Shown piece by piece: positions 47,858 to 56,672 of a stretch of 64,000 nucleotides of DNA (positions are counted from its first letter, which is position 1; each line of letters opens with the position of its first letter). The position numbers and the translations under genes were made by a program. The notes under the pieces were generated by a model. The model had not been told where the DNA came from. It worked only from the letters and a program-made list of their open reading frames with translations, and did no database searches. The stretch lies in the NCBI RefSeq assembly GCF_003018255.1, contig NZ_CP027440.1. One strand, 5' to 3'. This DNA comes from Escherichia coli (lineage in GTDB: Bacteria; Pseudomonadota; Gammaproteobacteria; Enterobacterales; Enterobacteriaceae).

Positions 47858-50530
47858 TTAAGCGATGGTACGTTGGATTTCGATGATTTCGAATACTTCG
47901 ATCACATCGCCAGTGCGGACGTCGTTGTAGTTCTTAACGCCGATACCACATTCCATACCGTTACGGACTTCGTTAACGTCATCTTTGAAGCGGCGCAGGG
48001 ACTCCAGCTCGCCTTCGTAGATAACCACGTTGTCGCGCAGAACGCGGATCGGGTTGTGACGTTTAACCACACCTTCGGTAACCATACAACCTGCGATGGC
48101 ACCAAATTTCGGTGATTTGAATACGTCACGAACTTCCGCCAGACCGATAATCTGTTGTTTCAGTTCCGGAGACAGCATACCGCTCATTGCCGCTTTCACT
48201 TCGTCGATCAGGTTATAGATGACGGAGTAGTAACGCAGATCCAGGCTTTCCGCTTCAATCACTTTACGTGCAGAGGCATCAGCACGTACGTTGAAGCCAA
48301 CCAGGATGGCATTGGACGCCGCAGCCAGGGTAGCGTCGGTTTCGGTGATACCACCTACGCCAGAACCGATGATCTTCACTTTAACTTCGTCAGTAGACAG
48401 TTTCAGCAAGGAGTCGGAGATAGCTTCCACAGAACCCTGTACGTCTGCCTTCAGGACGATATTCACTTCGTGAACTTCGCCTTCGGTCATGTTGGCGAAC
48501 ATGTTCTCGAGTTTAGATTTCTGCTGACGCGCCAGTTTAACTTCGCGGAATTTACCCTGACGATAGAGTGCAACTTCACGCGCTTTCTTCTCGTCACGTA
48601 CAACGGTAACTTCATCACCCGCAGCCGGAACGCCGGACAGGCCGAGGATTTCCACCGGAATGGACGGACCCGCTTCCAGCACTTCCTGACCCAGTTCGTT
48701 GCGCATCGCACGAACACGACCGTATTCGAAGCCACACAGAACGATATCGCCCTTGTGCAGAGTACCTTCACGTACCAGAACGGTAGCAACCGGACCACGA
48801 CCTTTATCGAGGAAGGATTCGATAACCGCACCGCTCGCCATACCTTTACGTACCGCTTTCAGTTCCAGAACTTCCGCCTGCAGCAGGATAGCGTCCAGCA
48901 GCTCATCGATACCAGTACCCGCTTTCGCAGACACATGTACGAACTGGCTTTCACCGCCCCACTCTTCCGGCAGGATGCCGTACTGGGAGAGTTCGTTCTT
49001 AACGCGATCCGGATCGGCTTCTGGTTTATCGATCTTGTTCACTGCAACCACCACCGGAACCTGCGCCGCTTTCGCGTGCTGGATTGCTTCGATGGTCTGC
49101 GGCATTACGCCGTCGTCGGCAGCAACAACCAGGACTACGATGTCCGTTGCCTGCGCACCACGAGCACGCATTGAAGTAAACGCGGCGTGCCCCGGGGTGT
49201 CCAGGAAGGTGATCATGCCGTTTTCAGTTTCAACGTGGTATGCACCAATGTGCTGGGTAATGCCGCCCGCTTCGCCAGAGGCCACTTTCGTTGAACGAAT
49301 GTAGTCCAGCAGAGAGGTTTTACCGTGGTCAACGTGACCCATGATGGTCACAACCGGCGCGCGCGGTTCAGCCGCTGCACCCGTGTCACGGTCGCTCATT
49401 ACCGCTTCTTCCAACTCGTTTTCACGACGCAGGATAACTTTGTGGCCCATCTCTTCAGCAACCAGCTGTGCGGTTTCCTGATCGATAACCTGGTTGATGG
49501 TTGCCATTGCGCCCAGTTTCATCATCGCTTTGATGACCTGAGAGCCTTTAACCGCCATCTTGTTCGCCAGTTCGCCAACGGTGATGGTTTCGCCGATCAC
49601 AACGTCACGGTTAACGGCCTGAGCAGGCTTCTGGAAGCCTTGCTGCAGCGAAGAACCTTTACGTTTTCCGCCCTTACCGCCACGTACTGCTGCGCGTGCT
49701 TCTTCACGATCAGCTTTTGATTCAGCGTGTTTGTTGCCTTTCTTCGGACGCGCAGCTTTCGCGTTACGACCACGGCCACGGCCGCCTTCGACTTCACGAT
49801 CGCTTTCGTCTTCTGCCTGGCGAGCATGTTGAGAAGTAGTAACGTGATAATCGCTGGAATCTTCAGTCGGTTCCGCGTTATCAGTCCATTTGTTTTCTTC
49901 CGCCATACGACGTGCTTCTTCAGCAACGCGACGTGCTTCTTCTTCGAGTTTACGACGCGCTTCTTCTTCGGCTTTACGCTTGAGCTCTGCAGCTTCCTGC
50001 TCACGGCGGGCTTTTTCAGCCTGGGCGTTTTTAGTCATATCGTCTTGTTGATTGCTCACTTTGTCTTTTTCCGCAGCTTCACGTTTCGCTTGTTCAGCAG
50101 CTTCACGCTTAGCTTGTTCTGCGGCCTCACGTTCAGCTTTTTGTTGCGCCTCACGTTTGGCCGATTCTTCTGCCTCACGACGGGCTTGCTCTTCCGCTTC
50201 ACGCTGCGCTTGCTCTTCCGCAGCAAGGCGTTCAGCCTCTTGCGGATCGCGTTTCACAAAGGTGCGTTTCTTGCGGACTTCGATTTGTACCGATTTGCTT
50301 TTTCCACCGGTACCAGGAATGTTAAGGGTGCTGCGTGTTTTACGTTGCAGCGTCAATTTGTCCGGGCCTGAATTTTTCTGATTCAGGTGGTCAATCAAAG
50401 TCTGTTTCTCTTGTGCAGACACAGAGTCGTCAGCAGACTTCCGGATACCTGCATCAGCAAATTGCTGTACCAGGCGTTCCACGGAGGTCTGTCGCTCTGC
50501 GGCCAGCGTTTTAATCGTTACATCTGTCAT
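47858..50530 (-). CDS. infB: translation initiation factor IF-2
   Basis: 890-aa [32 protein letters not shown]; GTPase motifs; charged repeat-rich N-terminal region. Confidence 0.97.
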
Positions 50531-50554: not shown

Positions 50555-52042
<1,488 letters not shown>

Positions 52043-52069
52043 CGCGGGCTTTTCACCTCATCCAGACTA

Positions 52070-52522
52070 TTAAAAGTGGGGAACCAGGTTCGCCTTCTGG
52101 ATATTACTCAGCGCGAACACTTCATCTTTACCTTCGACGGTAACTGTGATCATTTCACCGTCTACCGCTTTGATAACGCCCTGCCATTTACGACGGTTTT
52201 GTACCGCCATGCGGAGAACCAGAGTCACCTCTTCTCCGACGAAACGGGCGTAGTGTTCAGCCGTGAACAGTGGGCGATCGAGACCCGGTGAGGAGACTTC
52301 CAGGTTATAAGCAACGGTGATGGGATCTTCAACATCCAGCACAGCACTTACCTGGTGGCTCACATCAGCACAATCATCAACATTGATGCCATCTTCACTA
52401 TCAATATAGATGCGCAGTGTGGATGTGCGACCGCGAATAAATTCGATGCCAACCAGTTCAAAACCCAGGGCCTCAACTGGCGCAGTAATCATCTCTGTTA
52501 ATTTTTGCTCTAATGTGGACAA
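52070..52522 (-). CDS. rimP: ribosome maturation factor RimP
   Basis: ORF track 52070..52534; the 150-aa product (M)[27 protein letters not shown] begins at the TTG at 52522. Confidence 0.88.
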
Positions 52523-52582
52523 GCCCACCCCCAAGACATAAAAAAAGGGCCTAAAGCCCAGTTATTCTGTAGTCAGATAACA

Positions 52583-52608
52583 AAAAACCCCGATAAATCG
52601 GGGCTTTA
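52583..52608 (-). terminator. hairpin with U-run between metY and rimP (probable partial terminator/attenuator)
   Basis: Plus strand aaaaaaccccgataaatcggggcttt; on the minus strand a 6-bp GC stem followed by Ts. Confidence 0.55.
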
Positions 52609-52728
52609 TATAACTGAACCCTATAACCGCAACTGCGGTCTGGAGCACTTTCCAGAAGGATTTTTTCAAATCCCACTACGAAGGCCGAAGTCTTCACAGT
52701 ATATTTGAAAAAGGACTCTAAGGGAAAG

Positions 52729-52805
<77 letters not shown>

Positions 52806-53062
52806 CCTGAAACGTGGCAAATTCTACTCGTTTTGGGTAAAAAATGCAAATACTGCTGGGATTTGGTGTACCGAGACGGGACGTAAAATCTGCAGGCATT
52901 ATAGTGATCCACGCCACATTTTGTCAACGTTTATTGCTAATCACGTGAATGAATATCCAGTTCACTTTCATTTGTTGAATACTTTTGCCTTCTCCTGCTC
53001 TCCCTTAAGCGCATTATTTTACAAAAAACACACTAAACTCTTCCTGTCTCCGATAAAAGATG

Positions 53063-53101
53063 ATTAAATGAAAACTCATTTATTTTGCATAAAAATTCAG
53101 T
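53063..53101 (+). promoter_or_regulatory. argG control region with putative tandem ARG boxes (ArgR operators)
   Basis: aatgaaaactcattta and tttgcataaaaattcagt resemble the TNTGAAT-AT-rich-ATTCA ARG box consensus; assigned by eye. Confidence 0.5.
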
Positions 53102-53137
53102 GAGAGCGGAAATCCAGGCTCCTCATCAGTTAATTAA

Positions 53138-54496
<1,359 letters not shown>

Positions 54497-54503
54497 TTCG
54501 ACA

Positions 54504-56129
54504 TCAACCCTGCCCTTCAGGGGTGGGGTTACCTTGCTTATCCTCTGTAAACTCCTTTCTGAGCATCACATAATCGAAAACATCATGGTTTGCATCCACA
54601 ACCCGTGAGTCTCCTTTATAGTGTGCAATCACTTCCTCCAGCGTTTTCGGTTGTTCCGGCTTTGTTACCCCCATCCACGCATTAATCAGGTAATTATTGT
54701 AAGCTGTGGAAAAGATGTTGTTTTCCGTTGTGCGATCCACGCCATCCCCAAGAACGGGGCTATACCAGATAAACATCGGGACATGATATGCCTGCTGGCT
54801 GGCCTCCCTGCCTCCATGAAAATAGACGTTCTTCTTCGTAGGGTCACGTTCCAGGCCGTGGTCGGCAAAATACATGACCGAGGCGCGGCGATCTTTTAAT
54901 AATTCAAAAACCTGACCTAGCAAACTATCTGTGTAATGAATGGAGTTGTCATAGCAGGCATCCTGATCGTCCTGCGGTTGAAACACGGCGCTGGATTGCG
55001 GATAGGCGCTACAAGCCGGTTCATGGCTTCCATTTAAATGAAGAACAATCAGTTTCTTTTGCTGCGTATTTTGCTGTAATGCTTGCGATAAATGCGGCAA
55101 CAACAATTCATCAAATCCTCTGACATAAACTGTTTCCATGGCGCGCATGGCGATACTGGTAACTGCTGTACCATTCTGCCGAAAAGCGGATTGCGAGCTT
55201 AGCCAGAAAGTCTGAAATCCTGCTTGATTAGCCATATTAATAATGTTGTCCGGGTAATTATGAATGTCATGACTCAAAACGGAATCAGCAGTTAAAGAAA
55301 GGGGAACCGACAGCGCAGTGTAAGGTGCACCGCTTATTGCTTGATTAAACAGTTTGATCTGTTTTCTTTGTGCTTCGACTTGCGGTGTCGTAGAGCGTGT
55401 ATATCCATACAAAGACATATTGTCGACGCGTACAGACTCCCCCACAATCAACACGTAGGTATCAATACCTGTATCCCTGACTGATAATTGAAAATACGGC
55501 ACCGTGTTTGCAATTGAGAGTAATCTTTGATGCTCTTTCGCTGCTAAAGCAAAATAATTGAGATTGAAAAACGGTGTATAGGTAGCAAATCGCGACGCTA
55601 GTATATATGGACTGAACGCTTTTTTATTTTTTGCATCTTTATAAGCAAATTGACAAGCGGAAAATAAACTGCCCGAAATGACAATCAGCAATAATATTCC
55701 TGTCACTTTTTTCGTCGGCAAGGAAACATCATATTTTATTATTACTGCCAAAAAAAGAAGGGATAAAAAGGCAAAAGCACATAGATAAGGGATATACATC
55801 CCCAGCATTTTGACAACTTCATCCGGATCACTCTGCAGCACACTAATCGCAAATCCATCATTGAAAGTTGTACCAAAGGTACACCATGAATAGAGGCTAA
55901 TACTCATGTCTGCCGCTGTCAGTAACACAAATGGTGCGGCAACAAGCAGGCGAAGCGGAAGGGATGATATACGTTTAACAACCAGGATGGTCAGAACGAA
56001 GAACAGCAATCGCTGAACCATATGCGCTCCGGAAGAGGCGACTAAGTTCGTAATACCAAAAACAATAACACAAAGATACAACAACCAATGAGATTTAAAA
56101 CTTCTAACAAATTTGTTGAATACTGTCAT
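54504..56129 (-). CDS. yhbX: putative phosphoethanolamine transferase (sulfatase superfamily, EptA/OpgE-like)
   Basis: ORF track 54504..56162; ATG at 56129 gives MTVFNKFVRSFKSHWLL; N-terminal TM helices then a sulfatase-like domain; convergent with argG across a 7-nt gap. Confidence 0.85.
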   Translation of the reverse strand: MTVFNKFVRSFKSHWLLYLCVIVFGITNLVASSGAHMVQRLLFFVLTILVVKRISSLPLRLLVAAPFVLLTAADMSISLYSWCTFGTTFNDGFAISVLQSDPDEVVKMLGMYIPYLCAFAFLSLLFLAVIIKYDVSLPTKKVTGILLLIVISGSLFSACQFAYKDAKNKKAFSPYILASRFATYTPFFNLNYFALAAKEHQRLLSIANTVPYFQLSVRDTGIDTYVLIVGESVRVDNMSLYGYTRSTTPQVEAQRKQIKLFNQAISGAPYTALSVPLSLTADSVLSHDIHNYPDNIINMANQAGFQTFWLSSQSAFRQNGTAVTSIAMRAMETVYVRGFDELLLPHLSQALQQNTQQKKLIVLHLNGSHEPACSAYPQSSAVFQPQDDQDACYDNSIHYTDSLLGQVFELLKDRRASVMYFADHGLERDPTKKNVYFHGGREASQQAYHVPMFIWYSPVLGDGVDRTTENNIFSTAYNNYLINAWMGVTKPEQPKTLEEVIAHYKGDSRVVDANHDVFDYVMLRKEFTEDKQGNPTPEGQG

Positions 56130-56544
56130 CCAGAAATCCAAGTTCACAACCAATATAAACAATTATCAACAATGTTCAATTTTATATCAGACATGTTTTT
56201 CAACTCTGATCCATATCAGACCGAAACACTGTTAGTTTTTTCTTTTTAAATGATGCGGCCATTGTTCTCAGTAATTAAATAACATTATCAATGCGTCTCT
56301 AAACATTACGCAGAACGTAGCCATCAGTAGTTATACTGACAGGAGCAGGATGGTTTATCGAGAAGTAAACATATCCGTATTCGTACCGGAACTGGAGTTG
56401 ACACAATAAAGTGCCAATTATGTCAGCAGAAGGGAAAAGTTTATAACTAAGGCGTACCGATACCATCGTTTCAAAGTACCAGCTACGAGTAAAGCAACTG
56501 GACGAGATACAGATACCTGACAACCATTCCTCAGACCAGGACCA

Positions 56545-56585: not shown

Positions 56586-56672
56586 TGGTACCGAGGACGG
56601 GACTTGAACCCGTAAGCCCTATTGGGCACTACCACCTCAAGGTAGCGTGTCTACCAATTCCACCACCTCGGC
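56586..56672 (-). tRNA. leuU: tRNA-Leu (GAG anticodon), 87 nt
   Basis: Reverse complement reads GCCGAGGTGGTGGAATTGGTAGACACGCTACCTTGAGGTGGTAGTGCCCAATAGGGCTTACGGGTTCAAGTCCCGTCCTCGGTACCA. Confidence 0.95.

Follow-up and report, generated by a model that had tools for sequence, protein, structure and literature searches.

The metY-rimP intergenic region and its operon

The window, by which we mean the whole 64,000-nt stretch of Escherichia coli DNA that was analysed (contig NZ_CP027440.1), contains the argG / metY-rimP-nusA-infB locus, whose operon is encoded on the minus strand. The order metY, rimP, nusA is also that of the MG1655 annotation. The metY tRNA ends with its CCA at 52729 and rimP starts with TTG at 52522..52520, leaving a spacer of 206 nt and bearing out the limits (52523-52728) given for it in an earlier note that was made from the letters alone. 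The genes and the signals that flank the spacer are:

52729..52805, minus strand: metY, initiator tRNA-Met (CAU) (ARAGORN; Rfam tRNA, 61 bits; MG1655 alignment)
52070..52522, minus strand: rimP, TTG start, 150 aa (ORF list; MG1655 annotation b3170)
52042..50555, minus strand: nusA (ORF list)
50530..47858, minus strand: infB (ORF list)
52898..52927, minus strand: promoter-like site TTGACA-18-TATAAT, a 12/12 match to the sigma-70 consensus (promoter scan)
52821..52850, minus strand: promoter-like site TTTGCA-18-TAGAAT, just upstream of the metY tRNA (promoter scan)
52524..52532, minus strand: G-rich Shine-Dalgarno region of rimP, GGGGGUGGG (sequence; nearly invariant in the Enterobacteriaceae spacer alignment)

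The spacer aligns with that of E. coli K-12 MG1655 at 100% identity, with zero differences (MG1655 coordinate = window coordinate + 3,265,484). A 551-nt query found exact (100%) matches in many E. coli chromosomes and, at an identity of at least 99%, matches in 5,422 records of this species. The sole difference from K-12 MG1655 across the tRNA and the spacer is at tRNA position 46 (window 52760), which is G in the window and A in MG1655. With this base, metY of the window strain encodes a tRNAfMet1-type (G46) initiator tRNA, a type of metY reported for E. coli B strains (PMC6511841). Compared with the published metY-nusA-infB locus, the window strain is thus not K-12 and its metY is G46-type, but the spacer is identical.

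Promoters P-1 and P0 sit upstream of metY (PMC6511841). The TTGACA-18 nt-TATAAT site lies ~90 nt upstream of metY and, from its position, is probably P-1; the site next to the tRNA fits the position of P0 and may correspond to it. Beyond these promoters, argG (53153..54496, plus strand) and a 552-aa ORF (54504..56162, minus strand) lie between tRNA-Leu (56586..56672) and metY. The upstream neighbourhood has another gene in Yersinia, Serratia, Dickeya, Edwardsiella, Xenorhabdus, Photorhabdus, and Tatumella, where secG is found ~500 nt upstream of rimP.

Two further observations concern the start of rimP. RNAalifold predicted that the tRNA trailer CUUUCCC (52722..52728) pairs with the Shine-Dalgarno sequence GGGGGUGGG (52523..52531). 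Both strands are almost invariant in 66 distinct spacers and offer no covariation for either outcome; if real, the pairing could hide the ribosome-binding site of rimP as long as the transcript is unprocessed. In addition, many database 'RimP' entries are 187-210 aa long, not 150 aa, with the reading frame extended upstream through the leader by gene callers, which looks like an annotation artefact.

Tandem terminators and conservation of the leader

Two hairpins at about 52540..52560 and 52583..52608 had been flagged in the earlier note. Terminator scan, fold, and Rfam family RF01770 confirm both on the minus strand and identify them as t2 and t1, respectively. They are the long-known tandem Rho-independent terminators of metY-rimP-nusA-infB, already described and ordinary.

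52582..52607, minus strand: terminator t1, stem AAAGCCCCGA/UCGGGGUUUU, loop UUUA, U6 run at 52587..52582 (terminator scan, fold, Rfam)
52560..52581, minus strand: t1-t2 linker GUUAUCUGACUACAGAAUAACU, with a weak local hairpin of -5.0 kcal/mol (94.5% identity)
52540..52559, minus strand: terminator t2, GGGCU-UUA-GGCCC and a U7 run (terminator scan, Rfam, PMC2965389)

In DNA letters, t1 reads AAAGCCCCGA-TTTA-TCGGGGTTTT followed by TTGTT, and its stem (52607..52584) comprises ten pairs, five of which are G-C. The t2 stem (52559..52547) has five pairs, four of them G-C, and leads into a T7 run (52546..52540) that ends 17 nt before the rimP TTG, with rimP, nusA, and infB downstream on the same strand. 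Locally, t1 folds at -14.1 kcal/mol and t2 at -7.4 kcal/mol. Both have the form of an intrinsic terminator, i.e., a G+C-rich stem-loop directly followed by a U-run. The A-runs that were said to flank the hairpins reduce to an AAA before the t1 stem; the others are the U-runs read on the plus strand.

The terminator scan found four terminator-like sites in 1.2 kb, compared with 1.3 +/- 1.2 in shuffled sequences. Folding of the minus strand, which the earlier note had suggested as a check, gave -71 kcal/mol for the whole spacer versus -53.5 +/- 4.3 for dinucleotide shuffles (n = 200; z = -4.05; 0/200 as good). Terminator-like sites on the plus strand (52588..52603 and 52639..52656) were set aside as mirrors of minus-strand hairpins that have poor T-runs and no plus-strand gene entering them.

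The match to RF01770 covers 52640..52540 on the minus strand and model positions 1-102 of 102, and its score of 102 bits (E = 8.3e-18) compares with a gathering score of 47 bits. Membership of this family is indicated by the score, by the site directly upstream of rimP, and by the tandem hairpins, CCCg...cGGG and then GGGc...gCCC, with their U-runs. A permissive Rfam scan of 51500..53500 returned only rimP and tRNA above threshold and revealed no aptamer family upstream of the terminator of the kind expected for a riboswitch, a T-box, or a ribosomal-protein leader. Weak matches to STnc430, RsmY, CopA, Thr leader, and others were far under their gathering scores and were caused by the terminator hairpins.

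Published 3'-end data touch the spacer at t1. The DirectRNA-seq table of Adams et al. has a position 3318065 that corresponds to window 52581, one base past the t1 U-run; it is a 'Rho score' position based on 800-nt windows that include the tRNA end, and not a termination efficiency. In the curated Term-seq list, which covers three conditions, no 3' end is called at t1 or t2; the one end present is that of the mature tRNA at 3318213 (window 52729), and it is very strong (Adams et al., PMC7815308). Public data on 3' ends in the spacer are thus mixed, with a DirectRNA-seq position at t1 but no curated Term-seq end at either terminator. The proposal of partial termination is supported by the canonical form of both terminators, which match the published t1 and t2, by position 52581, and by an attenuator-derived rimP leader RNA among the ProQ-associated sRNAs (PMC5391140). 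Position 52581, at the end of an intrinsic terminator, was called a bicyclomycin-sensitive 'Rho termination region' with a Rho score of 2.97 (Adams et al.). A fusion of the rimP 5'UTR and ORF nevertheless went down, not up, in a rho mutant (Adams et al.), at odds with the apparent Rho effect at t1.

For comparison across species, we used 80 species genomes and eight further Enterobacterales families or genera, 120 metagenome contigs found by the pattern AGGGTCCAG...CCCCG...CGGGG, and a published list of distant leaders; pair statistics refer to 66 distinct Enterobacteriaceae spacers. The spacer is 192-213 nt long throughout the Enterobacteriaceae sampled. Pairing in the t1 stem amounts to 99.4% of cells, and none of the four G-C pairs of t2 varies; with so little variation in t1 and t2, covariation is unable to confirm either terminator. 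Identity to the window is 78.6% in the 5' half of the leader, which comprises the RNase III hairpin and two small hairpins (H2 and H3) and where indels and covariation occur. It is 95.7%, in the spacers of 65 other species, over the last 100 nt at the 3' end, which run from AGGGUUCAG up to the start codon and take in the t1 loop, the linker, and the flanks. As a yardstick, identity is 68.5% at third and 95.6% at first codon positions of rimP. Judged by these sequence comparisons, the constraint on the 3' leader exceeds the needs of two simple terminators.

The tandem architecture extends to Yersinia, Serratia, Dickeya, Edwardsiella, Xenorhabdus, Photorhabdus, Tatumella, and Sodalis, and, from the published list, to Vibrio, Photobacterium, Idiomarina, and Pseudoalteromonas (PMC2965389); many metagenome contigs carry leaders like those of the latter four genera. 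In Trabulsiella guamensis (L014:900-1200), only the last ~14 nt of the initiator tRNA (GGCCCCCGCAACCA) are left, with unrelated sequence before them, but the full leader is present with intact t1 and t2, so that this species has kept it in the absence of the tRNA gene. Vibrio-like metagenome contigs (L090, L094, L101, L107, L180, and similar ones) have an extra hairpin inserted between t1 and t2. The leader was scored as required in Salmonella transposon screens.

Processing, attenuation, and a candidate helix linking t1 and t2

The spacer holds at least five structures, where the earlier note gave two. Upstream of the terminators are:

52662..52712, minus strand: long hairpin with an RNase III cut (fold; published RNase III site)
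52690..52703, minus strand: internal promoter P2, -10-like TATACT at 52703..52698, start placed at ~52690-52691
52639..52655, minus strand: small hairpin H2, CUGGA-AAGUGC-UCCAG (fold; 79.9% of cells paired)
52624..52638, minus strand: small hairpin H3, ACCGC-AGUU-GCGGU (covariation; 98.8% of cells paired)

The long hairpin is ~50 nt in length and has about 20 pairs; over the 66 spacers, 96% of cells pair in its base helix. A genome-wide RNase III site, 3318176, listed as "intergenic rimP-metY" (PMC5371410), maps to window 52692, inside this hairpin and 37 nt past the tRNA 3' end. It is this hairpin, and not t1 or t2, that has the character of an RNase III processing site, so the tRNA 3' processing that had been assigned to the two flagged hairpins takes place in a separate, upstream one (52712..52662). 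P2 is located on the 3' side of metY (PMC6511841), and the RNase III product is similar to the P2 transcript (PMC5371410). A rimP 5'UTR clone begins at ACTTCGGCC / ACUUCGGCC, which is window 52690 (PMC7815308) and 7 nt downstream of the conserved TATACT; TTTTCAAATATACT is nearly invariant in the Enterobacteriaceae spacer alignment. From these positions we infer that P2 starts at ~52690-52691. Among the smaller hairpins, H2 has one pair with compensatory changes, and H3 has both-side changes in four of its five pairs (e.g., AU in 35 and GC in 27 sequences).

We consider it very probable that the 206-nt spacer is the leader (attenuator) of metY-rimP-nusA-infB, with t1 and t2 as its tandem terminators. 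The anatomy, the Rfam assignment, the conservation, and the covariation come from our analysis, and termination, RNase III cleavage, P2, and NusA feedback from the literature. Transcripts from the upstream promoters would carry the tRNA, and RNase III would cut them in the long hairpin at ~52692, freeing the tRNA precursor from the mRNA; P2 transcripts would start near this cut and so lack the tRNA. Both kinds of transcript would have to pass t1, a strong 10-bp hairpin with a U6 run, and t2, in which a weak G-C hairpin of 4-5 bp is followed by a perfect U7 run, and only a fraction of RNA polymerases would reach rimP, nusA, and infB. Because NusA stimulates hairpin-dependent termination, the terminators would subject the operon to negative feedback by its own product, and the weak, universally conserved t2 may be the main NusA-sensitive step. 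Tuning of the tRNA to mRNA ratio, the role offered in the earlier note, is too narrow. P2 transcripts have no tRNA but also have to get past the two terminators, and the element is therefore better described as an attenuator of rimP-nusA-infB, for which NusA feedback has been reported, than as a tRNA:mRNA tuner. The operon it controls encodes three central factors, RimP (ribosome maturation), NusA (transcription), and IF2 (initiation).

Published work describes t1 and t2 upstream of rimP together with P-1, P0, P2, and the RNase III sites (PMC6511841). Operon transcripts were increased in RNA polymerase mutants with reduced NusA-dependent termination (Bylund 2011, as cited in PMC6511841). In the survey of Naville and Gautheret (PMC2965389), rimP ranked first among genes with predicted attenuators and was the most widespread; a near-universal GGGc...gCCC terminator (t2 here) precedes it in many phyla, an extra upstream CCCg...cGGG terminator (t1) is present in some Gammaproteobacteria, and NusA was proposed as the effector of the rimP leader (PMC2965389).

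The same terminators could serve instead as the regulated step of cold-shock antitermination, with CspA-family proteins melting them and thereby inducing nusA, infB, rbfA, and pnp in the cold. As summarised in two papers (PMC9765468; PMC11648934), CspA, CspC, and CspE are reported to lower termination in the metY-rpsO operon, both in vivo and in vitro. However, the transcript pattern was the same before and after cold shock, with no new read-through RNA species, and antitermination by Csp proteins was disputed (Brandi et al., PMC6511841), cold induction being credited to promoter activation, mRNA stabilisation, and translational bias (PMC6511841). The presence of the same GGGc...gCCC terminator before rimP in many phyla is also a better fit to a general NusA-linked role, and we regard cold-shock regulation at this step as unlikely.

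Alternatively, t1 and t2 might act after transcription, either as parts of a stable, ProQ-bound sRNA with a role in trans or by protecting the tRNA precursor. The attenuator-derived rimP leader RNA is among the ProQ-associated sRNAs (PMC5391140), and the 95.7% identity of the 3' half of the leader, loops and linker included, goes beyond what plain terminators need. Yet attenuation is itself expected to yield a terminated fragment, and the literature examined reports no target or trans effect of the leader RNA. RNase III moreover separates the tRNA 37 nt past its 3' end, which leaves t1 and t2 outside the tRNA precursor, and the leader always directly precedes rimP, at 4-130 nt from its start (PMC2965389), which points to a role in cis. 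A post-transcriptional function is very unlikely on these grounds.

An open reading frame overlaps both terminators:

52551..52697, minus strand: 48-aa GTG ORF, 'CDS115' of PIRT-Seq, spanning t1 and with its UAG in the t2 loop (ORF list; PMC12350097)

If CDS115 were translated, a ribosome that crosses t1 and reaches the UAG in the t2 loop would melt the terminators, and read-through into rimP would report translation capacity. PIRT-Seq recovered an in-frame translation-reporter insertion in CDS115, and that 2025 study proposed CDS115 as a leader for rimP-nusA (PMC12350097). The ORF covers t1 and has its stop codon in the t2 loop, and such a sensor would make biological sense for an operon that encodes translation factors. 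The western blot of the same authors, however, left the protein unconfirmed (PMC12350097), and the insertion (~52683) may itself break the hairpin that hides the GTG. No Shine-Dalgarno sequence precedes this start codon, which is part of the RNase III stem and located before the point where P2 transcripts begin. Comparison of the 66 spacers also speaks against translation. The start is GTG in the E. coli/Klebsiella type, a TTG elsewhere in the Citrobacter/Salmonella type, and absent from 24 spacers; the stop in the t2 loop is kept in only 20, and in 37 the frame runs on to rimP with no stop. Of the variable columns, 7, 10, and 12 are at codon positions 1, 2, and 3, i.e., there is no third-position bias, and indels in the 5' half of the leader break the frame (spacers are 192-213 nt long). 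The conserved ORF, start, and stop of a leader-peptide attenuator are thus not found across the 66 spacers, which makes control by this peptide highly improbable. With neither start nor stop conserved and no codon-position bias, we also rejected CDS115 as a conserved coding gene; the pattern argues that its amino-acid conservation is a by-product of conservation at the nucleotide (RNA) level.

Attenuation by t1 and t2 may involve a further pairing, a candidate helix that would make the two terminators interdependent:

52610..52622, minus strand: 5' strand of the candidate enclosing helix, AGGGUUCAGUUAU, 98.6% identity (minimum-energy folds, pair counts)
52554..52566, minus strand: 3' strand of the candidate enclosing helix, AUAACUGGGCUUU, overlapping the t2 5' arm (minimum-energy folds, pair counts)

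In the minimum-energy fold, AGGGUUCAGUUAU pairs with AUAACUGGGCUUU, which encloses t1 and occupies the 5' arm of t2. The conserved form is AGGGUYCAGU (52622..52613, reaching 52610 in E. coli) paired with ACUGGGCU (52563..52556), a strand that is extended to 52566 and 52554 in E. coli. Forcing t2 to form over this helix costs 0-3 kcal/mol in Enterobacterales and 2.7-5.4 kcal/mol in contigs with Photobacterium-, Idiomarina-, and Pseudoalteromonas-like leaders and a further marine contig group. The helix core, GGUYCAG:CUGGGCU, is nearly invariant; the adjoining pair is U-A in 50 distinct sequences and A-U in eight. Roughly half of the sequences form three more pairs, of several types (UUAU:AUAA in Enterobacteriaceae, UGUUC:GAACA in Idiomarina, and UUAC:GUAA or AAA:UUU in others). 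Over a 31-column alignment, 81.3% of cells pair, compared with 77.9 +/- 0.8% after shuffling and 25-50% with the partner slid, for an alignment that we built ourselves with fixed anchors from phylogenetically related sequences and in which the search pattern of the metagenome set fixes AGGGTCCAG. Duplex energies separate cognate from non-cognate strands only weakly (-13.3 vs -12.0 kcal/mol) because the invariant core dominates, and anchored pair counts were used instead.

That t1 and t2 are not independent and that this conserved long-range helix is a real anti-t2 switch is conceivable, though we hold it to be doubtful. A transcript that has read through a folded t1 could close the enclosing helix and escape t2, and t2 would become able to terminate if the upstream strand were held by NusA, by another protein, or in an alternative pairing. 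The leader would then be a two-state switch in which the site of NusA feedback is identified, and the switch would account for a level of conservation in loops, linker, and flanks that resembles that of first codon positions in protein-coding sequence. In Vibrio, t2 remains free of the helix, as the covarying partner GCUUGG is located ~11 nt ahead of this terminator. Vibrio-type leaders duplicate the YUGG partner (GCUUGG, then AUUGGGCU), which makes the t1-enclosing helix separate from t2. A possible anti-t1 pairing, GGGUU:AGCCC, was discarded: it has only 4-5 pairs, and with both strands invariant covariation is uninformative. The near-invariance of the 3' 100 nt across Enterobacterales and the possible t1-t2 helix are leads on the mechanism of NusA feedback at the nucleotide level.

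Relation to known systems

The terminators t1 and t2 date from the textbook era, are curated in Rfam, and belong to one of the best studied E. coli operons; they are already known. The RF01770 family (Naville and Gautheret 2010) has the same hairpins, CCCCGA...UCGGGG and then GGGC...GCCC, the same U-runs, and the same position, and the E. coli sequence in the supplementary list of Naville and Gautheret is identical to the window. The model spans only 52640..52540, a range that excludes the RNase III hairpin, P2, H2, and the tRNA trailer, and its consensus lacks the long-range helix. The E. coli literature on t1 and t2 (Ishii 1984; Regnier and Grunberg-Manago 1989; Granston 1990; reviewed in Brandi 2019, PMC6511841) concerns the same locus.

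The leader-peptide attenuators of trp, his, and pheM likewise have a terminator in the leader, with an overlapping ORF and the possibility of alternative pairings. Unlike them, the rimP leader has no conserved ORF, start, or stop and no run of regulatory codons.

A closer parallel is the ylxS/rimP-nusA leader of Bacillus subtilis, which is autoregulated through NusA-stimulated intrinsic termination (Mondal 2016, as cited in PMC12288461). It differs from the E. coli leader in that it has one terminator only and lacks both a tRNA gene and an RNase III hairpin, and dependence on NusA was directly shown in B. subtilis, whereas for E. coli it is deduced from genetics, as summarised in PMC6511841. 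The two leaders share a weak G-C hairpin with a U-run before rimP-nusA and, on this reading of E. coli, negative feedback by an operon product that stimulates termination.
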